Source: Candidatus Kerfeldbacteria bacterium
GTDB taxonomy: Bacteria; Patescibacteriota; Patescibacteriia; UBA9570; XYC2-FULL-38-9
Assembly: GCA_043813585.1 (NCBI GenBank)
Contig: JBDRKW010000002.1
Location: 19,182-83,181, forward strand
Direction: 5' to 3'
Length of the DNA stretch: 64,000 nt
The position numbers and the translations under genes are program-made. Under the pieces are notes generated by a model. It was not told the DNA's origin, made no database searches, and saw nothing but the letters and a program-made list of their open reading frames with translations. This document shows, piece after piece, positions 14,386 through 58,080 of the stretch (position 1 is its first letter; every line of letters starts with the position of its first letter).

Positions 14386-14404
14386 AATCAATTCACAATA
14401 AATC

Positions 14405-14440: not shown

Positions 14441-14445
14441 TATGA

Positions 14446-15983: not shown

Positions 15984-16020
15984 GTAAAAAAAGTCCCGGA
16001 TCTGTTGCCAGAGTCCGGGA
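15984..16020 (-). terminator. Rho-independent terminator downstream of the 438-aa secreted protein gene
   Basis: Minus strand reads TCCCGGA-13 nt loop-TCCGGGA followed by CTTTTTTT. Confidence 0.6.
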
Positions 16021-16045
16021 GCCCACCTCGATGGGGGGGGTTGGT

Positions 16046-17362: not shown

Positions 17363-17491
17363 GAGGCGTCCTCCCTGTATGGTGGCGTGATTTCGATGGT
17401 AGGTTCAGCCCCAAAACAACAATTTTCATTGCGCTTAAAGGGCCTGTTACCCTAACATCACAGAGTATATTTTTCAAGTCCAAATCTCCAG

Positions 17492-17531
17492 TAAAGAAAG
17501 AACCCCGATATCCGTCATGGAATCGGGGTTC
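17492..17531 (-). terminator. Rho-independent terminator after the small secreted paralog
   Basis: Minus strand reads GAACCCCGAT-12 nt-ATCGGGGTTC followed by TTTCTTT. Confidence 0.65.
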
Positions 17532-17606
17532 TCCGTTCGATATTGCCGCGTCATGCGGCTAAAGTTGTTGCGCCGGCGGCGGGTGTTCCGCGGCCGGCGG
17601 TTGTGT

Positions 17607-17936
17607 CTAGCGGCGGCCGGTGCGTCGCTCCCACTCGCGGGTGGCGTTCTGGTCAATTGACCTTCCGCACACCGACACCGAGCTGGGTGCGTACACCGGA
17701 CACCAGTTGGCATCCACCCCGCGCTGGTCGCCGGTCGTGTAGACCGGCCCGGCCTGGTTGCCCCACGGGTGGTAGTCGTACCGCGGGTACGCCGGCCGCG
17801 GGTGCGACCGGTGCACGACGACCACGTGGGTCGTGTGCCGCGGGCGGCCGTGGCGCGGACGCGCGTCGGCGATCGCCGGCACGACCATCATCAGAATCAG
17901 GGCAGCCAGGGCCAGGGCACTCGTGAACTTCTTCAT
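17607..17936 (-). CDS. small secreted His/Arg-rich protein, paralog of the C-terminal domain of the 438-aa protein
   Basis: ATG at 17936 after AAAGAGGAGAG RBS. Signal peptide MKKFTSALALAALILMMVVPAIADA. Shares the HVVVV...PW...VY...WCPVYAPSSVSVCGRSIDQNATREWERR motif with the upstream protein. Confidence 0.7.
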   Translation of the reverse strand: MKKFTSALALAALILMMVVPAIADARPRHGRPRHTTHVVVVHRSHPRPAYPRYDYHPWGNQAGPVYTTGDQRGVDANWCPVYAPSSVSVCGRSIDQNATREWERRTGRR

Positions 17937-18146
17937 TTCTCTCTCCTCTTTTTCGTCCATCGCGTCTGCGACGGGCGTATGTTACGAACGGAGTGTTCTC
18001 CCTCCTTCTTTAAGAAGGTTAAGTCGTCACATGACGACAAAAGAACAAAACAGTCTATCATAAAAAAATCAAAATGTCAATACCTAAAATCGGGCGTGGA
18101 ACATGTAGTGCTACTACGCCATGTTCCACATTTAATGAGAAAGAAT

Positions 18147-18178
18147 CAAAAAAGCCGGCAACCTCTGCCGGCTTTTTC
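18147..18178. terminator. bidirectional terminator downstream of rpoC
   Basis: AAAAAA-GCCGGCA-acctc-TGCCGGC-TTTTT. Confidence 0.75.
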
Positions 18179-18203
18179 TATAGCATTCAGAACGGTCTGC
18201 CGG

Positions 18204-22169
<3,966 letters not shown>

Positions 22170-30688: not shown

Positions 30689-30695
30689 AGGTTTC

Positions 30696-30724
30696 AGTAT
30701 ACCAGTCAACGGGCGGTGTTTCAA
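30696..30724 (-). promoter_or_regulatory. sigma70-type promoter TTGAAA-17-TATACT driving a leaderless protease mRNA
   Basis: On the minus strand, -35 TTGAAA (30724-30719) and -10 TATACT (30701-30696). The ATG at 30688 lies only 7 nt past the -10. Confidence 0.5.
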
Positions 30725-35168: not shown

Positions 35169-35996
35169 CTACTTGAAATGTTGCTGCATAATCTCCACAA
35201 TCGCTTCCTCGTCCGGAATCCAGTAATAGAGCTCCTTGCCAAAGTCAGGGGTGTAGATACGGTCGCCGTAGCCGGGCAGCGCTTCCTCTTCCATCTCTCC
35301 GATTGAAACCTGGCCTTTGCGGCTGATGCCTGCTCCCACAAGAAAATAGATAAGTTTCGTTTTGCCGTAATCCAGCCGTGCCTGCTCTGCATCATTGAAA
35401 TAAGCGAGCAGCGATTTCACCGTGGAAGGTTTCTTGATTTTTGTCACAAGGGAACGAAGAATCTCGCGCGCGTCCGCCTGCCGGTCAAAGTCAGAGCGAT
35501 CGCCGGTAAACCGGTCGCGCACCACAGCCAACGCTGCAGGGCCGTCCACGACCTGGCCTTCCAGCACAGCGCCTCCAAGCGTATTGATAATCTCCTCAAA
35601 ACTCTGAAAGGTCACTTCAACCGTTGCGTCCACTTTTATATCCAGCAATTCTTCAATAACACTACGTGTCAATTCAATATTGCCCAGCGCCTTCTCGTCA
35701 TCCGGCCGTTCGCCCAACGCATAAAAATGCGTCATCTTCTGCATGCCCCATTCTTCGTGCTCAATATAAGTATCCCGCGGAATAGTCAAAAAATACGGTT
35801 GTTTGTTGCTGCTCTTCGGAACCGAAACGACAAACAGCACGTCAGAACGCGCCCGCTCAGTGCCGCGCTGATCCGATCCAACGAATAAAACATTGTAATG
35901 ATCCGGCGCCGTAACCACAATAAATCCCAAAACCACCACGATCAAGACAGCGCTTGTTATGATGAATCCTAAGATGAAAGGCAATATTCGTCTCAT
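35169..35996 (-). CDS. LytR-CpsA-Psr (LCP) family protein
   Basis: N-terminal TM, then NVLFVGSDQRG...RSDVLFVVSV...TIPRDTYIE, the LCP core. Confidence 0.75.
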   Translation of the reverse strand: MRRILPFILGFIITSAVLIVVVLGFIVVTAPDHYNVLFVGSDQRGTERARSDVLFVVSVPKSSNKQPYFLTIPRDTYIEHEEWGMQKMTHFYALGERPDDEKALGNIELTRSVIEELLDIKVDATVEVTFQSFEEIINTLGGAVLEGQVVDGPAALAVVRDRFTGDRSDFDRQADAREILRSLVTKIKKPSTVKSLLAYFNDAEQARLDYGKTKLIYFLVGAGISRKGQVSIGEMEEEALPGYGDRIYTPDFGKELYYWIPDEEAIVEIMQQHFK

Positions 35997-36943
35997 GAAT
36001 GCATGATTGAATGGACATAGGTCAGCACAACATCGTGCATTCTCTGCTCTTCTTTCAGGTTGTTGGTAAAATACACCATATTCGGTTTCGTATTCAACTC
36101 CACCATATACGGCTTGCCGTTCTGGAAAAAGAAATCCGCGCCATAAAACTTATACGGAAAAATCGCCAGCGCGTCAGAGACACGCTTTAACAACGGTTTC
36201 ACCGACTGAGGGATTTTAGATACAGGCAGGAAACAAATTCCACCACCCTGCGAGATATTACAGAGTTCCGTTCCAGGCGCAACAGTCCGAATATACGTCA
36301 TCACCGGCTTGTCGCCGGCAACATTGACGCGGAGGTCATGCGTGTCATTGAATAAACCAGGGATGCCGGCTGAGGTATCGATATGCGGCTGTAAAATACA
36401 CGGGGCGTTTGGCCGCCGATGTTTCATTTTCGCCTTGCTCTCTATAATGATTCCGGCGCCGCCATAACCCATGCGCGGTTTAAGCACTGCTTTTCGTGTC
36501 TTAATTTTTGCCAGTCCCTCAAGAAGTTCTGCCCGTGAACTGACCCGGTACGTATCCGGCATGATATCGTAAAACATCACGCTTGAGAGCAGTTTGTCTG
36601 AAGCCAGGAGGTCAAGCTCCATCGGATTAATCATCAAATTCTTTTTTTCAAACTCTTGCTTAAAACCAATACGATCATAGCGCATCGAAATCTTATCGTA
36701 GTACACGTCAGCCTTAATCCGCTTGCGGACTTTCACCCATTTAGAACCGTTCCAGGCCCACGCGCGGTCAAAATAACCATCCTTATACCAATGCATGCTC
36801 ATGCGGTAGGCCTCCATGCCATAATGGTCCGAAGCGCGCTGATACAATCGTTCATACGATTCGCGCATTTCGCGGTTCTCGAAGGGAACAGCCTTATGCC
36901 AGTCGGCATCTGAATACAGCATTCCGAAAATCTTTTTTCTCAT
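35993..36943 (-). CDS. ATP-grasp ligase, YheC/YheD-like
   Basis: VLKPRMGYGGAGIII (Gly-rich ATP loop) and C-terminal YMVELNTKPNM. 4-nt overlap with the LCP gene. Confidence 0.6.
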   Translation of the reverse strand: MRKKIFGMLYSDADWHKAVPFENREMRESYERLYQRASDHYGMEAYRMSMHWYKDGYFDRAWAWNGSKWVKVRKRIKADVYYDKISMRYDRIGFKQEFEKKNLMINPMELDLLASDKLLSSVMFYDIMPDTYRVSSRAELLEGLAKIKTRKAVLKPRMGYGGAGIIIESKAKMKHRRPNAPCILQPHIDTSAGIPGLFNDTHDLRVNVAGDKPVMTYIRTVAPGTELCNISQGGGICFLPVSKIPQSVKPLLKRVSDALAIFPYKFYGADFFFQNGKPYMVELNTKPNMVYFTNNLKEEQRMHDVVLTYVHSIMHS

Positions 36944-36961
36944 AACGATGGGTTAACTTTG

Positions 36962-37837
36962 TTATTTCTTGCGATACTGTTGCAGTGCATAATCAACCAC
37001 ATATTCCGCAACATCAACGCCAAGCGTCCCTTTCAAATTCTGCCATTGGGGATTTGCATTCGTTTCCAGAACAAGCCATTTGCCGTGATGCTTAATGAGA
37101 TCCACGCCGGCAATATCATACCCAAGCGACCGCGTGGCTTTCAGCGCCAATATGCGTACCTCCCGCGTCAGCGGCGCCTTGTCTGAATGCGCGCCAAGGG
37201 CATTCGTCCGGAATTCTCCTTTTGCGGCAAATCGTTCAAGCATCCCAATCACCTTGTTGCCGATCACAAGAACGCGATAATCGCTTTCAGCCGGAATATA
37301 TTCCTGAATGAAATATCCCGACCGGTTTTTGTTTAAGAATGCCAGCGCCTTTTTCTTTGAATCAAATTTCTCAATGCCACGACCCATCTGGCCGTACACC
37401 GGCTTTACGACAATGGGGAATGGCACCTGCCGCAACAACTCCTCATACGAACCCCCATCAGCAGCCTGAAAGGTGGCCGGGTGCGGAATGCCATTCTGGA
37501 CATAAATGCTTGCCTCATACACTTTGCTCGGCACGGTCCGCCGCGCCAAGGCCGAATCAATGACGATTTTGCCCTGCCGGACAAACAACCCCGCTAAAAT
37601 CTGCGCTATGACGTAGTTTCGGTTATACGCGCGGAACAGGTACACAGCACCGGTATCAATGCGGCGGCCCTTATATGTTGGCACTATCTTTCCATTCTTA
37701 TATGAAACCAAAACATCTTTCAGTTCGACAACGCGAACAGAATGGCCGCGGGCGCGTATTACTCGAACAAGATCCTGGTCGTTCTTGGATTTATGCCGGC
37801 CGATAATAATGAATTGTACCTTACGCGCCATCGGCAT
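36962..37837 (-). CDS. RimK-family alpha-L-glutamate ligase (ATP-grasp)
   Basis: The track ORF starts at TTG 37885. ATG at 37837 or 37831 (MPMARKVQFIIIG...). VVKPVYGQMGRGIEKF, EYIPAESDYRVLVIGNKVIG, LVLETNANP. The start overlaps the xseB 3' end. Confidence 0.75.
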   Translation of the reverse strand: MPMARKVQFIIIGRHKSKNDQDLVRVIRARGHSVRVVELKDVLVSYKNGKIVPTYKGRRIDTGAVYLFRAYNRNYVIAQILAGLFVRQGKIVIDSALARRTVPSKVYEASIYVQNGIPHPATFQAADGGSYEELLRQVPFPIVVKPVYGQMGRGIEKFDSKKKALAFLNKNRSGYFIQEYIPAESDYRVLVIGNKVIGMLERFAAKGEFRTNALGAHSDKAPLTREVRILALKATRSLGYDIAGVDLIKHHGKWLVLETNANPQWQNLKGTLGVDVAEYVVDYALQQYRKK

Positions 37838-38057
37838 CGTCCTCGACTTCGTATTGCTTCTTGAGCGTTTCGATGCTGTTTTCAACCGTCTTCAGCGTTG
37901 CCTTAAGGTCTTGTGCAATCTTCAGGCCTTTCTCAAACTGCTTCAGGCTGGCGTCCAGGTCAAGCTTTCCGTCTTCCAGCGAACCAACAATCGCCTCCAG
38001 CTCTTCAAACTGCTTTGCGAATGAGTCACTATTTTTGTTCTTGGTTGTTTTGGCCAT
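37821..38057 (-). CDS. xseB: exodeoxyribonuclease VII small subunit
   Basis: 78 aa. FEELEAIVGSLEDGKLDLDASLKQFEKGLKIAQ is the XseB signature. Confidence 0.85.
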   Translation of the reverse strand: MAKTTKNKNSDSFAKQFEELEAIVGSLEDGKLDLDASLKQFEKGLKIAQDLKATLKTVENSIETLKKQYEVEDDADGA

Positions 38058-38108
38058 ATCATAGTAAGACTATTAAGATTTACCCTCCCTGTCAAACCAC
38101 GCTTACTC

Positions 38109-39125
38109 TTATTTTTCAAGCAGCGCGCGCATTACTGTCCTGGCGATATTGCGCGGACGCCCTGCATGCGGAAAATGATGCATGCTCAGGCCCGGCTGAT
38201 GGTTCACCTCAACAACCACGCCGCGCGTTCGCTTCGCCGATTTGCTCACATCTTCACATAACAGATCAACACCCGCAAACCGGAGACCGAGCGCCTGTAC
38301 GGCATCTGTCGCTATGCGCTTATTCGCTTCGGAGATGTCATTGGTTGCATCTTCAACCGTACCGCCTGTCCCGATATTGCATACATTGCGCAAACGCACT
38401 TCACATCCGGATGCCGGTACGGACTGCAGCGTCATGCGCTGCTGCCGCAATAGGTACTTCATCTCCGCATCAATGCCGATCTTTTTGTACACGATGCCAG
38501 GGTGAACTTTGCGCATGCGCTCCCTCTCCGATATGAGTTGAAGTACCGACTGCCGGCCGTCCCCCACAACATACGCGGGCCGGCGCCACGTCACGCCAAG
38601 TACTTTTCCGTCAAACACCAAAATACGATAGTCATTCAAGCCCTTATGAAACTCCTCAATAAGAACGTACTCATATTTTTGCAATGCGGACTTCACCATC
38701 CGTTTCAGGGTTTTCTTATCGCGAATATCCGTCCGGATGCCCTCGCCGCCTGCTGTTCCTTTATTGGGCTTGATCACGAGCGGAAAGCGGAGACCTCGCA
38801 GATCCAGATCTCCGGAAGCCAGGTCTCGTTTGTGAACCCGAATGCTCTTTGAAACGGGCACGCCGGCGGCGGCCAGTTGCGTGTTAGTAATGAACTTGTT
38901 ATCCGCGGCAAAGGAACTTGAAAAAGTATTCAACGGCGTTGCCGCGCCAATGAAAAAGTACCGCCTCACCCCTTTTTCAATCAGGACATAATAGGGCTTA
39001 TGGAAAAAATGAACGGTCCATCCCATATCCAGCGCCACTTCTGCAAACAACGCAGCGTTAATCCAGCCGAGCTCAAACACCTCTTCATAAACATTTTTCT
39101 TTGTAATTCTGACCTTCTTAACCAT
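38109..39125 (-). CDS. ATP-grasp ligase resembling the N-terminal ATP-grasp domain of cyanophycin synthetase/RimK-like enzymes (stand-alone)
   Basis: PLVIKPNKGTAGGEGI, RRPAYVVGDGRQSVLQLI, CNIGTGGTVEDATNDI, VVVEVNHQPGLSMHHFP. Confidence 0.6.
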   Translation of the reverse strand: MVKKVRITKKNVYEEVFELGWINAALFAEVALDMGWTVHFFHKPYYVLIEKGVRRYFFIGAATPLNTFSSSFAADNKFITNTQLAAAGVPVSKSIRVHKRDLASGDLDLRGLRFPLVIKPNKGTAGGEGIRTDIRDKKTLKRMVKSALQKYEYVLIEEFHKGLNDYRILVFDGKVLGVTWRRPAYVVGDGRQSVLQLISERERMRKVHPGIVYKKIGIDAEMKYLLRQQRMTLQSVPASGCEVRLRNVCNIGTGGTVEDATNDISEANKRIATDAVQALGLRFAGVDLLCEDVSKSAKRTRGVVVEVNHQPGLSMHHFPHAGRPRNIARTVMRALLEK

Positions 39126-44406: not shown

Positions 44407-45894
44407 TTACTCTTCATTCTGCGCCGTCGTGTCCCCGGCAGGCAGCGCGGGCGTCTTCGCTGCTTTTACCGCCTTCTTGACTACTCGTTTCTTGATAACC
44501 TTTGTCGAATCAATGAGGAAATGCGATAAATTCCGCTTGCCGATAATCATAGGATACTTAAGGCTGGAGCGGTCGTATACATTCGGCTCGATCGTCATTT
44601 TTAACCCCCCTAATACCATGGCGAGCTTGATATGCATTCGGATAGAAACGCCATGCGAAGACTTCACCACCGACAACCGCGCAATATCCTTGTTCAGTCC
44701 GACCAGATCTTTTTTTACCGTTTCAATCGCCGCATTGGCCTCTTCCTCTGTTTCATATTCGGCAAAATGCTGCGCATCAAACGCGGCAATGGCTTTCCCA
44801 TACCCCAGCTCGCGCGCAAGCGCAATGTCCATCGAACTGTCATCAGCGCCCGTATCGATTTTTGCGCGGATATTTTTCCGGAATTGTTCTTTTCCGATCA
44901 GCGTTACCGGCTCAATGAGCCCGATCACGTGCCGGCCGGTAATGTTAGAAACCTCCTCTGCCAGGTATCCGCCGAACAGGTCTTTTGCAATTGCGATGCC
45001 GCGCTCCGGCGTTTCAACCGTTAATCCGCGAATGCGCTGCAGCCGGTCGCGCAGCGGAATCATATTCGCCACCTGGATTCCCAGGCCCGGCCGCGCGTTC
45101 AACTCCATAACCACCGGACCGCGCTTCTTGTCGACGGAAATATCCACGCCGGCAAACCGCAGCCCGATCACGCGCGCTGCAATAATGGCTGTCTTCAGTA
45201 CCTCGTCCCAGTACGGAACTCGTATTCCGCGCAGGCTCGCGCCGTTGTCCGGATGCTTTTCGATCTCTTTCTCTCCCAGGTAGGACTTCACAACAGCATG
45301 CGTGGTTATCCCGCTCGGTACGTCAACGCCAATGCCGATGCCGCCCTGCGCCAGGTTCGCCCGTCCGCCGGATTTTTTCGTCGGCACGCGCATCATCGCA
45401 AGCACCGGAACGTTGTTGTAAACAATCACGCGAATATCCGGTATGCCGTCTGCTGAAAAACGCTTATACAGCGGATCGCCCGCCAGCCGCGCTTCAAAAA
45501 ACGCGGCGTCCGGCGTATGCAGCAGGGAAAAATTCCCGTCCAGGATATTCATGACATGCGCCGCCAGATCTTCATTGGTAAGCTGCCGACCGCGTGTGGT
45601 CAGCCAGTTTCCGTTTTTCATTTTGTTGTACACGACAATAATTCCCTCGCCGCCCAGGCCGCGCGACGGTTTGATCACAAAACTATTCGGCAAAGAGTCC
45701 CAGTCAAAATCCATGATCTCGGTAGCATGCTTAATCACCGCAATGAGATCAGCGCTCGTGATCCCGTGTTTCATTAAAACGCGCTTCGTCCGAAGCTTAT
45801 CATCTGCAATTTTTCGCGCTCTCTTCTTGTTCTCCCGCAGGTAGATGCTGCTGCGGGCATTCATTCCGAGAACTTTACTTCTTGCTTCCAGCAT
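44407..45894 (-). CDS. fusion protein: RimK-related alpha-L-glutamate-ligase-like ATP-grasp domain plus C-terminal retropepsin-like (clan AA, DTGA) aspartic protease domain
   Basis: N-terminal IKPSRGLGGEGIIVV...VMELNARPGLGI (ATP-grasp). C-terminal GLIEPVTLIGKEQF...AKIDTGADDSSMD...PMIIGKRNLSHFLID with the D-T-G-A catalytic motif. Confidence 0.75.
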   Translation of the reverse strand: MLEARSKVLGMNARSSIYLRENKKRARKIADDKLRTKRVLMKHGITSADLIAVIKHATEIMDFDWDSLPNSFVIKPSRGLGGEGIIVVYNKMKNGNWLTTRGRQLTNEDLAAHVMNILDGNFSLLHTPDAAFFEARLAGDPLYKRFSADGIPDIRVIVYNNVPVLAMMRVPTKKSGGRANLAQGGIGIGVDVPSGITTHAVVKSYLGEKEIEKHPDNGASLRGIRVPYWDEVLKTAIIAARVIGLRFAGVDISVDKKRGPVVMELNARPGLGIQVANMIPLRDRLQRIRGLTVETPERGIAIAKDLFGGYLAEEVSNITGRHVIGLIEPVTLIGKEQFRKNIRAKIDTGADDSSMDIALARELGYGKAIAAFDAQHFAEYETEEEANAAIETVKKDLVGLNKDIARLSVVKSSHGVSIRMHIKLAMVLGGLKMTIEPNVYDRSSLKYPMIIGKRNLSHFLIDSTKVIKKRVVKKAVKAAKTPALPAGDTTAQNEE

Positions 45895-47524
45895 GTTTGA
45901 ACACTTTACGGAACCGGATAAACTCCATAAGCCGCAGGCCGGAGAATTTTCCGACCAAGTAATTAATCACGAGGGTAAGCAGAATCAATTCCGGGTATGC
46001 CAGCATGGTTGTCTTGAACAGCGTCCAGTCGGCAATGAGGAAACCGACAATGGAGAGGATCAGCGTTTCTGCCGTCAGCTTCACCGCCGTCTTGTACCCC
46101 TGTTCAATCTGAACGGAAACGAAGTGCTCGGTGATGACTGTCATGATCAGGATCGGAAAGACGGAAATATTGATCAGCCCAGGCAGGTCAAAGTATGCGC
46201 CAATAAAGAACAGCACCAAAATCGACAGTGCCAAAACGGACAAAACTATCGCCATCCGCGGCAGGTACAGAATTCGCAGCTTGCGGGCGAGGATGCGCGC
46301 AATCGCTCCCAGGATAATAATCGTTAAGAAGATAATCAGCCCGTATTGCAGCCCGGTTTCGAGGAACGCCAAAGCGATAACCGTTGGCGCGAAAATGCCA
46401 AATGCCTTAATCCCCACCAGCTGGCGGGCGGCGGCAATGACGGTTGCCATCACGGGCAGCATGAGGATCAGATAAAGGGAATTCACCGGCACGCCCGTAT
46501 TAATCATATAATTCATCAGGTACGACATGAAATTCAGGGGGCTCAGCTTCTGCAGTCCGCGTTCGGTGTATTCAGTAATGATCTGGTAGGCAGCGCCTGC
46601 TGTTACAAGCGAATTCTGCAGCTCTTCGGGACTCTGCGCTCGTATCGCGTCATCCAGGATCTCCTCGTCTGCCACGACAATGTACTTCGGCTGCAAGCCC
46701 TGGTACGTGCTCTGTGCCGTGCGTGCGCTCGTTGTCAGAGACTGGCTGTTATTCACGGCAACGATTGCCTTGGAGCCAAACCCGAGCGGCTCGAGCGATT
46801 CAGCGTTCAGCGAAGAGATGCGCGACAGCTCGATTAACGAATTCAGGCCGACATTGCCCGCGGTCCAGGTAATAATAATATCGGAAGCAATAAGATCCTC
46901 CTTTGCCTTCGCAATTTTTTGCGCCAGCGTCTGCACAGTCAGGTATTCCTGGCTCACGCCGACTTCACGGATTGATACGACCAGCGCACCCTGCGTCAAG
47001 CCGTATGAGACGAGGCTGTCCACCTGTTCTTTCGTCACGCTGTCGTCAGTGACAAGCATCACCAGCCGGTCCTGCACCGAAACAATCACTTCAGCGCTGC
47101 TCATCCTGTAATTTTTCGACCCCTCCGTTCCGACAGACGTCATCAACGTCACGCGGTAGGTACCGCTTGTCTCATACACATGCGTCGCGTCAATGCCGGT
47201 GGCGTTGGTCCCGTCGCCAAAATCCCATTCAAATAAAATATGCTCGTCTTCCGGGCCGGTCGTGGCTGACGCGTCAAATAACACCGTGCGCCCAACAACC
47301 ACATTCCTGTCTTCGCCCGCGTTCGCCTTGAGCCGGACTTGGCTCTTTGTGGCATTCTCGTTCTGCTGGGCATTTTCAGCCGCCGAATCCGCCGCTGCAG
47401 CAGTATCTTCCGGAGTCTGCGCAACAGCCGCCGCGGGCAATACGGCCCATGACGCAACTGAAAACATCAGCGCGCACAGCGCTGTGACCGTCCATCGGGT
47501 GAAAATTCTGTTCATTCGTATCAT
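45875..47524 (-). CDS. secreted PKD-domain protein with a C-terminal 7-TM bundle (7TM partner of the ATP-grasp/retropepsin system)
   Basis: The track start is TTG 47536; ATG at 47524 or 47515 gives a signal peptide (MNRIFTRWTVTALCALMFSVASWAVLPAAAVA). PKD block VLFDASATTGPEDEHILFEWDFGDGTNATGIDATHVYETSGTYRVTL. About 7 hydrophobic helices in the last 230 aa. 20-nt overlap with the downstream gene. Confidence 0.7.
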   Translation of the reverse strand: MIRMNRIFTRWTVTALCALMFSVASWAVLPAAAVAQTPEDTAAAADSAAENAQQNENATKSQVRLKANAGEDRNVVVGRTVLFDASATTGPEDEHILFEWDFGDGTNATGIDATHVYETSGTYRVTLMTSVGTEGSKNYRMSSAEVIVSVQDRLVMLVTDDSVTKEQVDSLVSYGLTQGALVVSIREVGVSQEYLTVQTLAQKIAKAKEDLIASDIIITWTAGNVGLNSLIELSRISSLNAESLEPLGFGSKAIVAVNNSQSLTTSARTAQSTYQGLQPKYIVVADEEILDDAIRAQSPEELQNSLVTAGAAYQIITEYTERGLQKLSPLNFMSYLMNYMINTGVPVNSLYLILMLPVMATVIAAARQLVGIKAFGIFAPTVIALAFLETGLQYGLIIFLTIIILGAIARILARKLRILYLPRMAIVLSVLALSILVLFFIGAYFDLPGLINISVFPILIMTVITEHFVSVQIEQGYKTAVKLTAETLILSIVGFLIADWTLFKTTMLAYPELILLTLVINYLVGKFSGLRLMEFIRFRKVFKHAGSKK

Positions 47525-47536
47525 AGTACCATTCAA

Positions 47537-50030: not shown

Positions 50031-50075
50031 TGCTTGTCAGCGGGAGTTTCTGTATCCACATGCATCAAGATCCGT

Positions 50076-51674
50076 ATGTACAGAAAATCATTATTCCTCG
50101 CATTAAAAAAATGGTGGCTCGATAATCCGTGGATTGCCCCGCTGCTTATTTTTTGCATTGCTGTCGCCGCTTTCTCCCTCTGGCTCGCGTCCCCGACCTT
50201 TGCGGATCCGGATTCCTTTTACCACATCAAGATCTCGGAGATGATGATCAAGAAGCGCCAGGCAATTACGGAATTCCCTTGGCTGCAATTTACGACGCTG
50301 AAAAATGCGTACGTTGACCACCACCTCCTCTATCACGTCTACCTCATACCGTTTATTCTGGCGCTCGGCACGACGGTCGGGGTCAAGCTGGCCACTATCC
50401 TGCTTGGGTCGGGCACCGTGACCTTGTTCTGCTGTCTGCTGCAAAAAATGAAGGTTCGGTATTCGCTTTTATTCTCAATACTACTGCTTTTCTCCTACTC
50501 GTTCGCGTTCCGGATGGGGCTATCGAAAGCTCCCGCAGTCGGATTCCTGTTCCTGACGGGCGGGTTCCTGCTTATGGCAATGAAACAGCATCGCCTCCTT
50601 ATCCTCACGAGCTTTCTGTTTGTATGGTCCTATGGCGGTTTTCTGCTGCTGCCGATCCTTGCCGGTATCTATTCCCTCATTGGGGCCTTCAGGTACGTTC
50701 AAAAAAATGGAAAGGCGTTCGAACGAAAAAAAATGCTCCGTTTGTTCCTGCCTCTCGCGGCAACCGTCGCAGGCACTGCAGCCGGACTGCTCATTCACCC
50801 TTCATTCCCGCAACACATCATCTTTCTCTGGCAACAGATAATTGAAATCGGGCTCATTAACCAGCAAAACGTCATCGGCGTGGGAAACGAATGGTATCCA
50901 TCCGAAATTATCACATTAATCTCGGATAACATACTGGTGGCCGGATTGCTCGCTTCCGGCCTGATTGCTTTTTTTGCCACCACAAAAAAACAGACGACGG
51001 CTTCAATTACTGCTGGTGTCCTGGTATTCATTTTCTTCATTTTTACACTGAAATCGCGCCGATATTCGGAATACTTTATACCATGGGCCGTCCTGTTCTC
51101 CGCGCTCTCCCTTCATCTCAGCGGCGCACTCGATGCCCTTCCCCGCCTGCTGAAAAAAGCAAAGCAAAAAATGAGCTCCAACGCCGTAACCGCGACCGCC
51201 GGAGCCGTTGCCGCCATCTACTGCCTGTTCATCTTCGGCGGTGTTTGTGCAATGGGCGCAGAAAATGTTTACGACTCCCACCATCATGGCATTCCACTGA
51301 CCGACTTTGCAGACGCCGGTAAATGGCTGCGCACCCATAGCAATAAAGGCGATATTGTGTTTCACAGCAACTGGGATATTTTCCCGCAGATGTTCTACCA
51401 CGTGGCACGCGACCGGTTTATTGTCGGCCTTGACCCGACCTTTATGTACAACTACGACCAGGAGTTGTATTGGGAATGGGTGGATATAACTAAAGGAGAA
51501 CAAACAAAAAATCTATATGAAATCATCGGGGACGATTTCAACGCGCGATTCGTCGTTATTGAAAACGACCATACGGCGATGATGAACAACGTCATCGCTG
51601 ACGGCCGCTTTAAGAAAACATACGAAGACGCCTCATACACCATATTCCGTTTACCGCGTGAAAACGGAAACTAA
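50076..51674 (+). CDS. polytopic membrane glycosyltransferase-like protein (GT-C/ArnT-PMT-like fold); family assignment tentative
   Basis: The track start is TTG 50034; first ATG at 50076 (MYRKSLFLALKK...). About 11 TM helices. Early periplasmic loop FADPDSFYH. Soluble C-terminal domain. Confidence 0.5.
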   Translation: MYRKSLFLALKKWWLDNPWIAPLLIFCIAVAAFSLWLASPTFADPDSFYHIKISEMMIKKRQAITEFPWLQFTTLKNAYVDHHLLYHVYLIPFILALGTTVGVKLATILLGSGTVTLFCCLLQKMKVRYSLLFSILLLFSYSFAFRMGLSKAPAVGFLFLTGGFLLMAMKQHRLLILTSFLFVWSYGGFLLLPILAGIYSLIGAFRYVQKNGKAFERKKMLRLFLPLAATVAGTAAGLLIHPSFPQHIIFLWQQIIEIGLINQQNVIGVGNEWYPSEIITLISDNILVAGLLASGLIAFFATTKKQTTASITAGVLVFIFFIFTLKSRRYSEYFIPWAVLFSALSLHLSGALDALPRLLKKAKQKMSSNAVTATAGAVAAIYCLFIFGGVCAMGAENVYDSHHHGIPLTDFADAGKWLRTHSNKGDIVFHSNWDIFPQMFYHVARDRFIVGLDPTFMYNYDQELYWEWVDITKGEQTKNLYEIIGDDFNARFVVIENDHTAMMNNVIADGRFKKTYEDASYTIFRLPRENGN

Positions 51675-53659
51675 TCCAGCAGCCCGTCCAGACCAATAGA
51701 CGTGGAGTTATCAGGGTCAATTATCGCCGCGCGCATCTTGAGTGTCTGCAATAATTCTTCCGAGGGAACCACCGGGCCGAAAACTGCCGCAACCCGCGCA
51801 GCCCCGGCAGGATGGACAACCGGAAGATGCATTGCATAGCTCTCGCCGGGCAGCCATGTATGCGTCGGGACAACCGAAAATCCAAGCGCATACTGATGTT
51901 CCTTGACCCGTTTTCCCTCAGAATCAAACCATTGCAGCTCAAGCTGCTGGTCATCGTCTGTCCATCCGCCGTTCATCTTTTCAAACGCGAGAGAAAGAGT
52001 GCCGCGATCATCGCCGTCAGGCGCATAGTTCCAGCCAAGAAACATCAAATCACCCTGCAAATCAGTGCGCAGGGGCTGCTTAATAGTCGCAGGATTATTT
52101 GTCCAAAATTGCTGCTCTTGATCCACTAACTCCTTGCGCGCAAAAACAAACGCATCCTGAGTTTGGTACGCGGGTATTAAATCATTGTCGTCAAGCACCT
52201 GCTGGACGCGCTGCCACGTATGCTGAATCTCCTCATCAGGAATATTTATTGCGGAATCGAAAATAACGTCATGCTCCATGATCAAACGCGAAACGCCTGT
52301 CGGCGATTGATAGGGGGTATCGGAAAAATGCATTTTTCCCGTAAACAATCCAAGGTTGGAATACAAATGCTCCCGATGCGATAAGAGCGGCCAAAACCGC
52401 CGCGACGCCATCACCGCTTCAGTATCGCCAATGGATTGAACAATCGTGCGATATCCATCCACATCGCGATGATACCATTCATCCACAGCGTCGGGAATTT
52501 CACGGAGCGGTGAAAACAGGCAAAAAAACATGATGAAATATGCCAGCAACGACAGCCCGACGGCATACGACAGCGCATATACTCTCCCCAACCGTGAACA
52601 GTTGATCCGCTTCAGCAGCTTCAAAAAAACAGGAATCCCGTAGACGGCAGAAATGAGCAGCCACGGAAAAATAACTGCAGCATGGTGGCTGGCCACAATC
52701 GCCCCGATGATATTCCTGTCAATCATAAAATAAAACAAAAACGGCCCGAGCGCCGGAACGAGGTAGCGCACCTTGAAGAATGAAAGCATGCCGATGCTCG
52801 CAATGAGATAAAATAATGCAATGGCATGGTCATTGCCAAATAACTTTGCAATCGAGCTGACGGGATGAAAGAGAAAAGCCCGCGCCACTTCCCCCGGGGT
52901 GCTGCCGTAATGTTCAAAATACATCATGAACTTCACGGTATCATCCGGGGAAAAGAACGATGCCACCCACAACATGCTAATGAGCCAAACGATGCTCAAC
53001 GCCGCGATTGCCGCGCCATGAAACCAGTACTTCCTCCCGTGCCGCAGCACAACCAATACCCCGACGCCTATGGTCATGAACGCCAAATCTTCACGAAGCA
53101 GCAGCAGCAGGACAACCAGGCAGTAGGTTGCGGCCCATTTCTTCCTGTCCAGTGCCAGCCATAACCAAAAAACGACGGGGATGACAAACGGCAGCATATG
53201 GAATTCAAACAGATTCATCTGCTGAACGGTCGGATGGATCAAATACAGCACACTCACGGCTGCCGCAATATATTCCGCCTTATTAACCCGGCCAACGAGC
53301 GCACGCTTCGCTATGAAATACAGCGGAAGGGCGCCGCTTCCAAGAGCAATGGTCTGCGCGACCAATAGCGTTATCGGATGCCCGGCAACCCAGTACAACG
53401 GCACAAATGCCATTAATAGCCACGACCGGTGATCCACCAGGTATGAATACGGGTTAAACGAATACTCATACCAGCGAAAATGGGAACTGTTCCATAGGAC
53501 CTGGTCAAATATTGCAAGATCAAATGTCGGGTACTGAAAATTAAAATATTTTGCAATGCACACTGCAGAAAAAACGACGCAGTAGGCAATACAAGAAACC
53601 CATACGATGCGGGGTATGCGCAGATGCGGCTTCATGACAGACAGCATGATTTTTCCCAT
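51671..53659 (-). CDS. DUF2079-family integral membrane protein
   Basis: 662 aa. N-terminal YPTFDLAIFDQVLWN (DUF2079 signature). More than 10 TM helices. Large C-terminal soluble domain. Confidence 0.65.
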   Translation of the reverse strand: MGKIMLSVMKPHLRIPRIVWVSCIAYCVVFSAVCIAKYFNFQYPTFDLAIFDQVLWNSSHFRWYEYSFNPYSYLVDHRSWLLMAFVPLYWVAGHPITLLVAQTIALGSGALPLYFIAKRALVGRVNKAEYIAAAVSVLYLIHPTVQQMNLFEFHMLPFVIPVVFWLWLALDRKKWAATYCLVVLLLLLREDLAFMTIGVGVLVVLRHGRKYWFHGAAIAALSIVWLISMLWVASFFSPDDTVKFMMYFEHYGSTPGEVARAFLFHPVSSIAKLFGNDHAIALFYLIASIGMLSFFKVRYLVPALGPFLFYFMIDRNIIGAIVASHHAAVIFPWLLISAVYGIPVFLKLLKRINCSRLGRVYALSYAVGLSLLAYFIMFFCLFSPLREIPDAVDEWYHRDVDGYRTIVQSIGDTEAVMASRRFWPLLSHREHLYSNLGLFTGKMHFSDTPYQSPTGVSRLIMEHDVIFDSAINIPDEEIQHTWQRVQQVLDDNDLIPAYQTQDAFVFARKELVDQEQQFWTNNPATIKQPLRTDLQGDLMFLGWNYAPDGDDRGTLSLAFEKMNGGWTDDDQQLELQWFDSEGKRVKEHQYALGFSVVPTHTWLPGESYAMHLPVVHPAGAARVAAVFGPVVPSEELLQTLKMRAAIIDPDNSTSIGLDGLLD

Positions 53660-53696
53660 TGCACCAGTATACCAAATTCAGCTGCAGCACAACAAA

Positions 53697-53725
53697 AGAA
53701 CCCGCAAGTGCGGGCTCTTTTTATA
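53697..53725. terminator. bidirectional terminator (CCCGC-aagt-GCGGG flanked by A and T tracts) after pilin-like gene 1
   Basis: aaagaaCCCGCaagtGCGGGctcttttta. A perfect 12-bp palindrome ACAGATATCTGT is adjacent at 53726-53737. Confidence 0.6.
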
Positions 53726-53751: not shown

Positions 53752-54111
53752 TTAGATTACTTGCGCACCTGTTGCGCCAGCGAGAATGCCGACAGCATAG
53801 ATGGAAATACCCCATGCAGCCATGACAATTACGAGGCCGATGACAGCTGCGATTAGAAGCTTCTTCGCGCTATCTACCTTTTCCTCGTTGCCGCCCGCTG
53901 TCATCCAGCGGAAGCCGCCGATCAGAACCATGATCACTGCGATAATGGCAAGGATGCCGAGAATCCAGTTGATAAGGTTGATAACAATATCTTCAGGAGT
54001 GTTTGTACCATAGCCGTTAACAGTGATACTTGTATTCACCTGTGCAAGCACTGGTGACGAAATAAGCATGCCAAGAGCTGTGAAACCGGCTGTTGCTAGT
54101 TTATTCTTCAT
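53752..54111 (-). CDS. VirB2/TrbC-like pilin-family small membrane protein (paralog 1 of 4)
   Basis: AAAGGAGGTGA RBS. Signal peptide MKNKLATAGFTALGMLISSPVLA. IGGFRWMTAGGNEEKVDSAKKLLIAAVIGLVIVMAAWGI. Confidence 0.6.
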   Translation of the reverse strand: MKNKLATAGFTALGMLISSPVLAQVNTSITVNGYGTNTPEDIVINLINWILGILAIIAVIMVLIGGFRWMTAGGNEEKVDSAKKLLIAAVIGLVIVMAAWGISIYAVGILAGATGAQVI

Positions 54112-54303
54112 TGAGTCATCACCTCCTTTCGATAATGTTCAGTTAAACTGATGTGCAAACTGTAGCATATATCCCCCATTTCATCAAGTCCCGCTATCCT
54201 TCTGTGGATGACGCCCGTACAGCCATCCTGAAAATAATTTAGTGGACGAACCCGGGGTACTGCAGTATAATTGAGTCGATCATATTATTCCAATAACTCG
54301 TCT

Positions 54304-54684
54304 ATGTATAAAAAAATAACCAAAACGCTATCAGCCGCAGGCGCCTCTCTTTTCGGTACGATGGCAGTTGGCGTGCATGCGGCGCTTGCACAGACTGAAT
54401 ACTTCGATCCAAACGATACAATCGGCACTAGCTCCGGCCTGCCTACCAGAAGCGCGGCAGATACGGCCCTTGCAATAGCCAATGTGTTTCTTGGTACCGT
54501 GGCGATCATCGCAGTCATCCTTATCATCTACGGCGGATTCACATGGATGACGAGCGGAGGCAGTGAAGAAAAGGTTACAAAGGGAAAAAATATATTAATC
54601 TGGGCCGTCATCGGCCTCCTCATCATCATGAGCGCATGGGGCATTACGCTCTATCTTATCGGCATTCTCGTTCCGGCAACGTAG
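54304..54684 (+). CDS. VirB2/TrbC-like pilin-family small membrane protein (paralog 2)
   Basis: The track start is TTG 54271. ATG 54304 (MYKKITKTLSAAGASLFGTMAVGVHAALA) follows the TGGACG-17-TATAAT promoter at 54244-54270. IYGGFTWMTSGGSEEKVTKGKNILIWAVIGLLIIMSAWGI. Confidence 0.6.
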   Translation: MYKKITKTLSAAGASLFGTMAVGVHAALAQTEYFDPNDTIGTSSGLPTRSAADTALAIANVFLGTVAIIAVILIIYGGFTWMTSGGSEEKVTKGKNILIWAVIGLLIIMSAWGITLYLIGILVPAT

Positions 54685-54711
54685 GCAAAGCGCTTCTTCA
54701 TTTGTATGAAC

Positions 54712-54737
54712 AAAAAACTCCCCTGCGGGAGTTTTTT
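54712..54737. terminator. bidirectional terminator between convergent pilin-like genes 2 and 3
   Basis: AAAAAA-CTCCC-ctgc-GGGAG-TTTTTT. Confidence 0.75.
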
Positions 54738-54755
54738 CATAATTCTGTCAGTAAT

Positions 54756-55103
54756 CTACACGATCGATTCACCTGCAATGGCACGGAAAATCGCTTCGGT
54801 TATGCCGTAGCTCGCGAAGACGACCACCAAGCCGATCGCTGCCCACATTAACGTATCACGCCCTTTCTTGACGCGCTCCGGACTTCCGCCGGAGGTCAGC
54901 AGCAAAAACCCGCCGTACACGATTATTATCAACGAAATAATTCCCACGATGCCGAGGAAAACGCGGATGACGTTTGCAATCACCTCATTCGGGTCTGTGA
55001 CGTTGCCAAGCGGATTCGTCAGTGAGAACTGCGCCAGCGCCGGCATAGCTAAAAACAAACCGACGACAGTTGTAGATGCTATTGTTTCAATTCGATGTTT
55101 CAT
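54756..55103 (-). CDS. VirB2/TrbC-like pilin-family small membrane protein (paralog 3)
   Basis: Signal peptide MKHRIETIASTTVVGLFLAMPALA. VYGGFLLLTSGGSPERVKKGRDTLMWAAIGLVVVFASYGI. Confidence 0.6.
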   Translation of the reverse strand: MKHRIETIASTTVVGLFLAMPALAQFSLTNPLGNVTDPNEVIANVIRVFLGIVGIISLIIIVYGGFLLLTSGGSPERVKKGRDTLMWAAIGLVVVFASYGITEAIFRAIAGESIV

Positions 55104-55114
55104 AGGTGCTCAAT

Positions 55115-55822
55115 TTATTCTATAGTTAATATACAGCAGACCGGTCGGTCATCCGGACAGGACCCCGTGGGTGATTCAATGCCGCCAGCTTCAGTGCAAA
55201 GGCTCGATTCTGTCAGGCATGACGCTGCCGTTGTTTGAGAACCTATATAGTTTGCCTCGCAGGATGGAATGCAGGTGCCGCCAGAACAGACACAGTTGTT
55301 CGTACAGTTGTCCTTCGTAATTGAACAAATCTTGCCATCATCCTGAGCCCCGCATTCCTGAAGCGTCGAACCTTTGGGAGTGCTGCCGCTTTCGCAGAAT
55401 GTTGACCAGTCCGTACCGAACAGTATTGCATTATCCGCCGGATTCTGTGTTACATATCCATCACCGGACGGTTTCTTAACAATAGAAGCAATTGAATAAT
55501 TCACCAGTAAAAACGCACCAAGGACAAAGAACAATCCGATAACCGCACCAATCATTATCTGCTGCCCTCGCTGCACCCGTTCCGGGTTTCCGGCAGAGAT
55601 AATCCAGTACACGCCGCCGATAATGATCATCAACACAACCAGCGGGCCGATCGCCATCAACAGGCCCTCTGCCCACCCCGCAAACAACGCAATAAAATCA
55701 CATGTTGTGCAGTTGCCGTCTTTCCAGCATGCCGGCAGAATCTGCGCGCGTGCAGCCAGCGGTGCGAACAGGGCGACTGCAACAGCGGCAATAATGGATA
55801 TTCGCGTTTTGATCATAATCAT
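55115..55822 (-). CDS. VirB2/TrbC-like pilin-family protein with a 120-aa Cys-rich C-terminal extension (paralog 4)
   Basis: Signal peptide ...FAPLAARA. IGGVYWIISAGNPERVQRGQQIMIGAVIGLFFVLGAF. The tail has 13 Cys (CTNNCVCSGGTCIPSCEAN...VCCILTIE). Confidence 0.55.
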   Translation of the reverse strand: MIMIKTRISIIAAVAVALFAPLAARAQILPACWKDGNCTTCDFIALFAGWAEGLLMAIGPLVVLMIIIGGVYWIISAGNPERVQRGQQIMIGAVIGLFFVLGAFLLVNYSIASIVKKPSGDGYVTQNPADNAILFGTDWSTFCESGSTPKGSTLQECGAQDDGKICSITKDNCTNNCVCSGGTCIPSCEANYIGSQTTAASCLTESSLCTEAGGIESPTGSCPDDRPVCCILTIE

Positions 55823-55825
55823 CGA

Positions 55826-57208
55826 TTAGTCTGATTGGAACGTAAGGCTCACCTTCCGCTGCGCCAGCGCCACAATCTCTTCAATAGGCGATGCTTTCGC
55901 GATCGCTTCATTCACCATCTCGCGGAACGCCAACAGCGTCGTATCAGGATCAACCCCATGATACCATGTTTTTGCGGTCAACGCCTGTTGGGCAAAGATG
56001 CCGATTTCGGAATCTTCCTGTTTCGTGCCGATTAATGATTTCACAGCCGGAATTCGCCCGGTCGAATCAAGAAATGCGCTCACCTGATCCTGCTGGGATA
56101 AATAATTTATGAAATTCCATGCATGGTCAGCATTTTCGCTGCCGATATGCACCGCTTCAATCGGATACCGCGCAATATTCACCTGGTTATTCAAATCCAC
56201 CTGCGGAATCTTGGCATAGGAGTAGTTGAGGTTTGGCGCACGGTTGTCGATAACAGCGCGGTCGCCGTAATAGCCGAAGTAGAAACCAAGCGTGCCCTGC
56301 GTAAACGCTTCAAGCGCTCCGAGCTGGTTATCGTCCCAGGTATATGTTCGAAACGCCGGGTCAGAAAACTTCGTGTAAAAATCCAACGCTTCAACCCCGG
56401 CCAGCCGTCCTGACTCTGTTTCGCCGATGAAATCAATGCGGCCGGTTTCGGTTACCATGTCTGCACCATTCTGCATCATGATTGATGACAAGATGTCCAT
56501 GAAGTATGGGATGTTATCAGCCGTACCGATAGCTGCAGCCGGCTGAACAATCTTATTGTCCTCGTCATACTGGGTCATGGCCTGAACCGCATTCCTGAAC
56601 TCCTCCCATGTGGTCGGCGGAACGGCAACCTGCGCGCGCGCCAGCAAATCGCGGTTATAGTACATCACCAATGTATCAAAGCTGTACGGCAATCCGAAAA
56701 TCTGATCTTCATATACCGCATCGTGGTAGACCGCATCAACAAACCGGTCACGGACCTGCGCAGTAGACGGAAACTGCACCGTGTTCTCGGTAACGGTGAT
56801 AACCGTCCGTCCAAAGCTCTTTTCTGCCACGGATTGGCGCAACGTCGCCTGCTGCGGCATGGGCGAGATAAATTCGCGGAACTTCCCCAACCGCCAATTC
56901 GGTACTGAAAAAATATCCGGCCCCTCCCCTTTTGACCAGGCGGCAAACAATTCATCTTCATACGTTTCCGGATCCATTGTGCGGATATTGAAGGAAACGT
57001 GCGGATACACCGCCTGATAGGCCTCAACCGCCGGGGTAAAATCACCGCTCCTGTCCGCCGGTCGCCAAATCTCCATCGTAAACGGGACTGGCGGTTCCAG
57101 GTCGCCGCCGCCCGGGCATAGCTGGCCCGTCGTTACCACTGCTGCCAGCAACAAAAACAAACCGGCGATCGAAACGGGCAGTGTTTTCAGAGAAAAACGC
57201 TTTCTCAT
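55826..57208 (-). CDS. extracellular solute-binding protein, ABC family-1 (sugar-type) SBP; no cognate permease adjacent
   Basis: Signal/lipoprotein-like N-terminus MRKRFSLKTLPVSIAGLFLLLAAVVTTGQLC. Family-1 SBP fold-length and motifs. Confidence 0.6.
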   Translation of the reverse strand: MRKRFSLKTLPVSIAGLFLLLAAVVTTGQLCPGGGDLEPPVPFTMEIWRPADRSGDFTPAVEAYQAVYPHVSFNIRTMDPETYEDELFAAWSKGEGPDIFSVPNWRLGKFREFISPMPQQATLRQSVAEKSFGRTVITVTENTVQFPSTAQVRDRFVDAVYHDAVYEDQIFGLPYSFDTLVMYYNRDLLARAQVAVPPTTWEEFRNAVQAMTQYDEDNKIVQPAAAIGTADNIPYFMDILSSIMMQNGADMVTETGRIDFIGETESGRLAGVEALDFYTKFSDPAFRTYTWDDNQLGALEAFTQGTLGFYFGYYGDRAVIDNRAPNLNYSYAKIPQVDLNNQVNIARYPIEAVHIGSENADHAWNFINYLSQQDQVSAFLDSTGRIPAVKSLIGTKQEDSEIGIFAQQALTAKTWYHGVDPDTTLLAFREMVNEAIAKASPIEEIVALAQRKVSLTFQSD

Positions 57209-57213: not shown

Positions 57214-58080
57214 CTAAATATCTAATTGTTTAATGAATTCTTTTAATTTGTCCTTAACCTCTTCGTTTTTCAATGCGAACGACAGTACCGCTTTCACATA
57301 TTCCGCCTTATTGCCGCAGTCGCGATACACACCTGAATATGTCTTTGCATACACATCCTGCTCCTTCATCAGCGAACGGATCGCATCGGTTAATTGGATC
57401 TCTCCGCCCGCACCCGGTTCTGTTTTTTCCAGATGGTCAAAAATCTCCGGGGTCAGCAGCCACCGGCCGCTCACCGCCAGATTCGACGCCGCTTCCTCTA
57501 CCGGCGGCTTCTCGATAATGTCAGAAATTTTCACCAGCGTGTCATCCAGTTTCTTCTCGGGCGTCACGATGCCGTACCGGTCAACCTCATCTTTCGGCAC
57601 TTCCTGCACGCCAACAACAGAACCGCCGTATTTCTGATACACCTCAATCAATTCCTTGGCAGCAGGCTCGCCTTCAACCACATCATCGCCGCCGCATACG
57701 ATAAACGGCTCATCATGGATAATGCTCCGTGCCTGCAATACCGCATGCCCCAATCCGAGCGGTTCCGTTTGCGGAATAAAAATATACCGCGCCAATCCGA
57801 CGCATTCTTTAATGGCGTTCAACTCCGCATGCTTATTCTTCTCGTGAAGCACGCACTCCAGGGGCTCATCGCGTTCAAAATGCCGTTCAATCGCGATCTT
57901 GCTTTCGTTTGTAACAAAAATAATTTCTTCAACTCCGGAATCCCGCAGCTCCTCAACAATAAACTGAATGACCGGCTTATCCACCAACGGGAGCAGCTCT
58001 TTGGGGATTGCTTTAGTTGCCGGGAGAAAGCGGGTGCCCATCCCTGCAACCGGTATTATTGCTTTTCGTACGACTGCCAT
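57214..58080 (-). CDS. galU: UTP-glucose-1-phosphate uridylyltransferase
   Basis: KAIIPVAGMGTRFLPATKAIPKELLPLVDKPVIQFIVEE. Confidence 0.9.
   Translation of the reverse strand: MAVVRKAIIPVAGMGTRFLPATKAIPKELLPLVDKPVIQFIVEELRDSGVEEIIFVTNESKIAIERHFERDEPLECVLHEKNKHAELNAIKECVGLARYIFIPQTEPLGLGHAVLQARSIIHDEPFIVCGGDDVVEGEPAAKELIEVYQKYGGSVVGVQEVPKDEVDRYGIVTPEKKLDDTLVKISDIIEKPPVEEAASNLAVSGRWLLTPEIFDHLEKTEPGAGGEIQLTDAIRSLMKEQDVYAKTYSGVYRDCGNKAEYVKAVLSFALKNEEVKDKLKEFIKQLDI

Follow-up and report, generated by a model that had tools for sequence, protein, structure and literature searches.

What is the function of pilin-type genes that lie next to a gene for a sugar-type solute-binding protein (SBP) and away from the ATPase and channel genes of a type IV secretion system (T4SS)? 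This question is raised by a 64,000-nucleotide stretch of contig JBDRKW010000002.1 (called the window in the following), in which four paralogous genes, designated P1 to P4, are clustered with an orphan SBP gene. The source is a metagenome-assembled genome (MAG) of Candidatus Kerfeldbacteria, class ABY1, and hence a member of the candidate phyla radiation (CPR, Patescibacteria), the group to which an earlier reading of the bare nucleotide sequence (the original prediction) had related the cluster. T4SSs and VirB2-like pilins are widespread in Patescibacteria and essential in one species, and the locus described here places part of the pilin repertoire away from virB4, behind an orphan SBP gene in a conserved operon.

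The four open reading frames (ORFs) occupy positions 53752-54111 (P1, minus strand, 119 amino acids, aa), 54304-54684 (P2, plus strand, 126 aa from its ATG; the ORF as first placed runs from 54271), 54756-55103 (P3, minus strand, 115 aa) and 55115-55822 (P4, minus strand, 235 aa with 16 Cys), as originally predicted, and it is very likely that all four belong to the T4SS pilin (PF18895) and TrbC/VirB2 families. Relative to Pfam gathering cut-offs of 26.6 bits for PF18895 (T4SS_pilin) and 27.9 bits for PF04956 (TrbC/VirB2), P1, P2, P3 and P4 score 52.4, 48.0, 48.0 and 26.2 bits with the former, and P3 also exceeds the latter with 32.7 bits; the P4 homologue P0133 reaches 31.8 bits with PF18895. 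With the NCBIfam family NF045849 (Mbov_0395 pilin-like conjugal transfer proteins; cut-off 40 bits), P3 scores 41.4, P2 35.6 and P1 31.1 bits, and P4 gives no match. The search with hidden Markov models (HMMs) assigned the proteins to no unrelated family, and the VirB2/TrbC identity put forward at the outset is upheld. Comparison of the pilin profile with PDB sequences returned chance matches to membrane proteins only (E at least 0.09) and was uninformative; it is therefore the architecture and the matches to curated HMMs that support family membership. In the public record P4 is identical to NCBI MFH1425913.1 ('MAG: pilin'), whose start is set two codons later.

The paralogy of the four proteins exceeds chance, because a profile of P1-P3 alone gives 46.7 bits for P4 and at most 8.2 bits for 200 shuffles of the P4 core. 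Pairwise phmmer comparisons give 30-85 bits, and the proteins can be aligned across the whole core with 25-46% identity, P1 and P2 sharing 46%. Hydropathy, alignment and, for P4, an AlphaFold2 model with helices at residues 40-75 and 80-115 bear out the expected signal peptide, two hydrophobic helices and conserved core in each of them, and the common layout consists of a signal peptide ending in A-x-A↓Q, a hydrophilic segment of 15-27 residues, helix 1, a loop with the pattern GG..(E/P)E(K/R)V..(G/A)(K/R) and helix 2. The prepilin motif of type IV pili (G↓FxxxE), whose absence had been pointed out, is found in none of the four, the segment AGFTALG of P1 having Gly instead of Glu at +5, and none matches the type IV pilus families of Pfam. 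Between the paralogues no DNA repeats or shared segments of the gene-conversion cassette type were detected, and the local pilin HMM finds no fifth copy in the window.

Next to P4 on the same strand lies the SBP gene (55826-57208, minus strand, 460 aa; identical to NCBI MFH1425914.1), whose product matches SBP_bac_8 (PF13416, 4.3e-23) and SBP_bac_1 (PF01547, 1.2e-15) and gives weak matches to sugar SBP structures. In most of its homologues the signal peptide ends in a single, lipobox-like Cys, which suggests that the SBP is probably a lipoprotein. The operon begins with a galU-like gene (57214-58080, minus strand; NTP_transferase, PF00483, 1.6e-31), and the successive gaps in galU-SBP-P4-P3 are 5, 3 and 11 nt, the latter two being exactly those reported before. 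Together with the finding that within this operon a terminator hairpin stands solely after P3, these gaps support the proposal that P4 and P3 are transcribed together with the SBP gene. In all, three transcription units are discerned, namely galU-SBP-P4-P3, P2 alone and P1 alone. P3 and P2, which converge, have in common a bidirectional intrinsic-terminator hairpin at 54712-54738 (AAAAAACTCCCCTGCGGGAGTTTTTT), composed of A-tract, hairpin and U-tract and folding on both strands (z -2.7), and P1 has its own intrinsic terminator at 53694-53721 on the minus strand (hairpin and U-tract, z -5.3; a consensus scan also marks 53701-53714). The ATG of P1 is preceded at a distance of 8 nt by GGAGGTG (54120-54126), a strong Shine-Dalgarno sequence; no obvious one precedes P2 or P4. 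A consensus scan finds the promoter-like sequence TTGCAA-17-TATATT upstream of galU (58154-58126, minus strand). The promoter proposed for P2, TGGACG-17-TATAAT, is present at 54243-54271 on the plus strand and with 10 of 12 matches is the best in the region, but should be regarded as a candidate only, promoter-like sites as a class being no more frequent there (6) than in shuffled sequence (6.8 +/- 2.8). Since the -10 box of this candidate extends into the TTG at 54271, the start codon of P2 is most likely the ATG at 54304. An Rfam scan of the array region gave nothing near threshold.

Does the association of SBP and pilins extend beyond this one contig? In a blind test, the search was made with the SBP alone, and seven distant homologues of 27-38% identity were chosen regardless of their neighbours (loci L016-L022 of the related loci L001-L022). 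In all seven the SBP is followed by PF18895 genes, in one to nine copies, and in five of them no more than about 365 nt separate the queried SBP from the first called pilin gene. The two other arrangements are those of L021, in which GalU and then a second SBP stand between the queried SBP and six pilins, and of L018, in which the called pilin genes begin 1.8 kb downstream, past two called ORFs on the opposite strand. The remaining neighbours differ from locus to locus (gyrase, RecA, Mg-chelatase, IF-2), GalU being present in three of the seven, and the flanks, of at most 10 kb, contain no ABC permease, ABC ATPase or VirB4. Likewise, the SBP has no ABC permease (BPD_transp) or ATPase (ABC_tran) gene beside it in the window, in L001-L011 or in L016-L022. 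The SBP stop and the first pilin start, 3 nt apart in the window, overlap in L007, L008 and L011. The SBP-pilin pairing recurs across distant CPR lineages, and it is likely to reflect a real functional link. The whole architecture, led by an SBP, unlinked to virB4 and with a Cys-rich first pilin, appears to be undescribed in the literature searched.

Two of the blind loci show peculiarities of their own. In L018, positions 8401-9996 hold a plus-strand ORF of 531 aa that overlaps the SBP end by 4 nt, contains 10 Cys and scores 31 bits with the pilin HMM, and the public call of two opposite-strand ORFs after the SBP may be wrong. In L016, a small GIY-YIG gene (13685-13984) sits inside the nine-gene pilin array, and for the first pilin (8473-9648, 391 aa, 18 Cys) matches to DUF559 and, faintly, to MTES_1575 are on record; this may represent an insertion of the homing-endonuclease type.

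If the pairing is conserved, are the individual pilins conserved as well? P4 homologues and related loci were mapped with the local pilin HMM and blastp, and the distinct complete arrays compared were those of the window, L001, L004-L008 and L011 (L001 and L002 being a near-identical pair). The Kerfeldbacteria-type cassette has the order GalU, SBP, long Cys-rich pilin, second pilin, variable set, last pilin and DUF2079, with a GalU homologue before the SBP in the window, L001/L002, L004, L006-L008, L011, L016, L021 and L022. The number of pilins, which had been suggested as a point to compare among relatives, varies from four to nine (4, 4, 4, 4, 5, 5, 6 and 9 across these arrays). Best matches track position rather than genome: P4 pairs with position 1 in L001, L004, L005 and L007, P3 finds its best match in the second pilin of L001, L004, L005, L007, L008 and L011, and the counterpart of P1 is the last pilin in six genomes. 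Identity between such positional orthologues is 31-78%, and P1 is the most conserved member, its core being 67-78% identical to the last pilin of L001, L004 and L005, as compared to 62-66% for GalU (L001, L004) and 52-56% for the SBP. The variable middle set, to which P2 belongs, is inverted in window-type loci and consists of one to three genes in loci of the inverted type and of up to seven in L006. On this evidence the paralogues are ancient and specialised, with only the middle set changing in number, and for this reason an arrangement of major and minor subunits fits better than an antigenic repertoire.

With regard to the sources of these arrays, several public records bear a CPR-type GalU-SBP-pilin cassette or a CPR VirB4 under other titles, namely L006, L009 and L011 ('uncultured Gammaproteobacteria'), L021 ('Candidatus Binatia') and L005 ('Candidatus Microgenomatus auricola'), and these taxonomic labels are probably wrong or imprecise.

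The most unusual member of the cluster is P4, which adds to the pilin core a Cys-rich tail (residues 117-235; 55118-55474, minus strand) ending in C-P-x3-5-[VI]-C-C. The tail has the 13 Cys counted earlier, and three further conserved Cys stand before helix 1, which makes 16 in total; P1-P3 have none. By VirB2 topology both termini would be extracytoplasmic, and the 16 Cys could be expected to form disulfides. An HMMER pass over 1.84 billion representatives found the P4-type tail in only six proteins, one of which bears the module twice, and in every match long enough to judge it follows that same pilin core, P0135 being truncated at its N-terminus. The tail has no Pfam match, and the structure prediction that had been suggested for it succeeded in part: the last 50-60 residues form a small beta-rich unit of moderate confidence, but overall confidence is low. 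Foldseek comparison of the full P4 model with the PDB returned only generic helical hairpins, all with E > 1. In view of the low model confidence and the missing fold match, the adhesin tip put forward at the outset may be regarded as a candidate role of the tail only.

Extended pilins are not confined to the P4 type. The first pilins of L007 (9842-11011), L008 (7988-9202) and L011 (9872-11074) are about 400 aa long with 20-22 Cys and carry PG_binding_1 (E values of 3e-9, 8e-10 and 2e-13, respectively); hhalign detects no homology between the window-type and the PG_binding_1-type tails. In L016, L018 and L021, too, a long and Cys-rich pilin comes first after the SBP. L009, a related CPR contig without the SBP, encodes three pilins of 374-427 aa at 8485-12045, of which one is fused to Amidase_2 (N-acetylmuramoyl-L-alanine amidase, 4e-16) and another to a 3D domain. 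These genes adjoin RecG (12624-14834) and lie 6 kb from a VirB4-like ATPase (17827-19689), which as a query gives at least 8000 matches at >70% identity, none of them assignable to the MAG of the window, and the layout matches the T4SS neighbourhood of ABY1 described in PMC12102498. The pilin core evidently serves as a platform for cell-wall-directed modules, and the L009 pilins may supply the VirB1-like wall-cutting activity that most CPR T4SS loci seem to lack.

How far is such a locus already known? From a survey of 3,035 Patescibacteria genomes with PF18895 and PF04956, Quinonero-Coronel et al. (2025; PMC12102498) reported 441 VirB2-like pilin arrays, each of 2-11 genes, distributed over 383 assemblies. 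Identity averaged 25% and reached 54% at most, and a pilin gene stood near virB4 in 1,135 of 1,948 assemblies. An array was defined there as at least two PF18895/PF04956 genes of low mutual identity, in tandem or one non-pilin gene apart, and the window array, with four adjacent genes in a Patescibacteria host, falls under this definition. In Southlakia epibionticum, the series of pilins in the T4SS cluster (SEML1_0014-0019, listed as PF18895 proteins) was found to be essential by transposon sequencing (Wang et al. 2023; PMC10633639). Since VirB2-like arrays have been reported in Patescibacteria and the NCBI annotation pipeline PGAP names P4 'pilin', this kind of feature is already published, and four pilin paralogues in a CPR genome are by themselves ordinary. 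The published arrays resemble the one described here in their family (PF18895, sometimes with PF04956), host phylum, diverged tandem copies and signal peptide with hairpin. However, that of S. epibionticum lies inside a T4SS cluster, whereas no T4SS gene occurs within 64 kb here, and the orphan SBP (often with galU) leading a Cys-rich extended first pilin is absent from the main text of both PMC12102498 and PMC10633639.

More distant counterparts are the VirB2/TrbC pilins of Gram-negative T4SSs (T-pilus, RP4 and F-type), which are likewise small and have a long signal peptide, two helices and a short basic loop. The A↓Q context of the window pilins resembles the Ala↓Gln cleavage site of Agrobacterium VirB2. 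In contrast to these systems, the host here is a monoderm, no virB operon is adjacent and VirB5 is lacking, similarity to the solved pilins is undetectable and one member has a 119-residue extension. The Mbov_0395 family (NF045849) of Mycoplasma integrative and conjugative elements (ICEs) also comprises hairpin proteins of monoderm T4SS-related systems, but as single genes in mobile conjugative elements, unlike the four chromosomal copies of the window, which lie among housekeeping genes with no relaxase or mobile element. As for the SBP, solute-binding folds are tied to type IV secretion, and not to nutrient import alone, in PrgZ of pCF10 and ChvE of Agrobacterium. PrgZ is a peptide-binding protein of family 5 acting via the Opp permease, and ChvE signals through VirA; the SBP of the window is of the family 1/8 sugar type and in this differs from PrgZ.

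Where, then, would the secretion machinery be? Pfam scans of essentially all large ORFs revealed no VirB4, VirB6, VirD4 or relaxase in the window, and tblastn with a CPR VirB4 query gave no match there, as had been stated for VirB4, VirB6 and VirD4. P3 gave no tblastn match among 72,556 plasmids. Among three Kerfeldbacteria assemblies compared in Table S1 of PMC12102498, two are given as VirB4-positive. The same table lists as VirB4-positive GCA_001001705.1, the genome of class ABY1 that holds the SBP-led array L016, and since the flank of that array is without VirB4, the two coexist unlinked in this genome.

It is proposed that the locus encodes four specialised VirB2/TrbC-superfamily subunits of a T4SS-type filament or stalk together with an SBP partner, a composite reading which we consider somewhat better supported than its negation; that the structure is an extended filament is an evenly balanced matter. 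According to this model, Sec insertion and signal-peptidase cleavage would generate a membrane pool of hairpins with both termini outside, which a VirB4/VirB3/VirB6-type platform encoded elsewhere would extract into a surface filament or stalk. P1 would be the major subunit, as suggested by its highest conservation, its strong ribosome-binding site and its own promoter and terminator, with P3 and P2 as minor or variant subunits. P4, whose translation would be coupled to that of the SBP, would be a low-abundance subunit exposing a disulfide-bonded extracellular module in contact with cell-wall or host-surface glycans, and the tethered SBP might act as glycan binder, sensor or assembly partner of the filament and not as part of an ABC importer. 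Several points weigh against this proposal. To our knowledge, a filament has been observed for no PF18895 protein, and the roles of P1, P4 and the SBP are drawn from conservation, expression signals and gene order only. The PF18895 score of P4 lies 0.4 bits under the cut-off, its AlphaFold2 model is of low confidence (predicted local distance difference test, pLDDT, of 58 for full-length P4 and of 62 for its tail), and the tail model has no fold match. Extensions of 115-280 aa are hard to fit into a helical polymer of the VirB2 type except at its tip or base. Finally, T4SS ATPase and channel genes are missing both within the 64 kb and in the flanks (at most 10 kb) of the SBP-led arrays examined.

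The main rival explanation is that the hairpins of the VirB2 superfamily stay in the membrane, either as parts of a channel or stalk or as two-helix anchors which present extracellular modules such as the Cys-rich domain, the peptidoglycan-binding domain or wall hydrolases. Fusion of family members to PG_binding_1, Amidase_2 and 3D domains speaks for such a function, as do the nearest NCBIfam family, a conjugal-transfer protein of ICEs in the wall-less Mycoplasma, the lack of linkage between the array and virB4, and the observation that Gram-positive T4SSs are mostly without pili (PMC12102498; PMC10633639). However, the short, Cys-free P1-P3 bear no module to be displayed, and the conservation of P1 exceeds that of neighbouring housekeeping genes, as would be the case for a polymerising subunit; a pilus in these monoderms is also deemed an intriguing possibility in a 2025 review (PMC12857230). 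On balance, membrane-bound hairpins are held to be an unlikely description of the locus as a whole.

Two further explanations concern the multiplicity of the pilins and the presence of the SBP. The original prediction had considered antigenic or functional diversification. In an antigenic repertoire, pilin copies would be swapped or recombined against host or phage recognition, and multiple diverged copies, a middle copy number differing among relatives and the analogy to Bartonella and Anaplasma VirB2 paralogues drawn in PMC12102498 would be in keeping with it. Yet such a repertoire fits the array poorly and is given very little probability, since every array position can be matched to an orthologue of its own in other genomes (31-78% identity), the paralogues share no DNA segments or repeats, all copies have their own expression signals, Pfam scans reveal no recombinase or invertase near the array, and only the middle set varies. 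The SBP could also be a bystander, serving an ordinary ABC importer for sugars that has its permease gene at another site, with the pilin genes packed into a galU-SBP sugar operon. Its place in ordinary sugar SBP families, the role of GalU as a sugar-nucleotide enzyme and the short intergenic gaps of compact CPR genomes would all be compatible with incidental adjacency. This is nevertheless very improbable, as the pairing outlasts the turnover of all other neighbours in the seven blind loci despite the low SBP identity, the SBP stop and pilin start are in near contact here and overlap in three relatives, and a permease is adjacent in no locus.

A wider and distinctly doubtful conjecture is that SBP-led arrays constitute a separate, virB4-unlinked surface module of ABY1/Paceibacteria-type CPR, in which the tethered SBP and a Cys-rich or peptidoglycan-binding first pilin would form a glycan-recognising tip or base on a T4SS-derived filament of the conserved last pilin and couple the recognition of host or cell-wall glycans to attachment or nutrient capture. 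If true, this would be the first concrete handle on the role of the enigmatic T4SS pili of CPR. In any case, the pairing offers testable partners, namely the ligand of the SBP and the SBP-pilin interaction, as well as a candidate division into major and minor subunits.

The surroundings of the array are chromosomal in character. Pfam scans, which covered essentially every large ORF of the window, reveal genes of an ordinary chromosomal kind, among them those for RpoB, RpoC, GroEL, RecA, cell-division FtsK, GuaA, IMPDH and a Mur ligase, and further RuvABC, YebC, PGI, GalU and RlmH. Immediately 3' of the array stands a gene for a polytopic membrane protein of the DUF2079 family (51671-53659, minus strand; PF09852, 1.1e-50), which is of contextual value only. 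It is found 3' of the array in L001/2, L004-L008 and L011-L013 and not in L016-L022, and since its synteny is limited to Kerfeldbacteria-type loci, it was rejected as a component of the system. It converges, with a 4-nt overlap, on a second polytopic membrane-protein gene (50034-51674, plus strand), whose 546-aa product has only a very weak STT3-like NCBIfam match, and PDB sequence searches with the two proteins gave no matches. Relatives have more large membrane-protein genes 3' of their arrays (L007, L012 and L013 have four apiece), and the 546-aa protein has homologues among the products. These flanking proteins may be glycosyltransferase-like; given the missing PDB matches and the very weak STT3-like match, glycosylation of the pilins by flanking GT-C-like enzymes is speculation.

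Three other regions of the window deserve mention. A gene at 16046-17362 (minus strand) encodes a secreted protein of 438 aa with no Pfam match, in which a signal peptide, about 300 low-complexity residues rich in Ser, Arg and His and a C-terminus rich in Trp and Tyr are recognised, and lies inside a stretch of 65% GC (16001-18000); its composition is unlike that of the rest of the window. Several ATP-grasp genes (RimK-like, and ATPgrasp_ST fused to a Zn_protease domain) at 35993-39125 and 44407-47536 (minus strand) adjoin a gene for a PKD-domain protein with a 7TM_transglut module, and the cluster looks like a peptide-ligase or modification system. At 27803-30724 (minus strand) a subtilase of 973 aa (Peptidase_S8) with weak fn3 and FG-GAP matches is encoded, probably a large secreted or surface protease, and L004 has a similar S8 protein beside its cassette.

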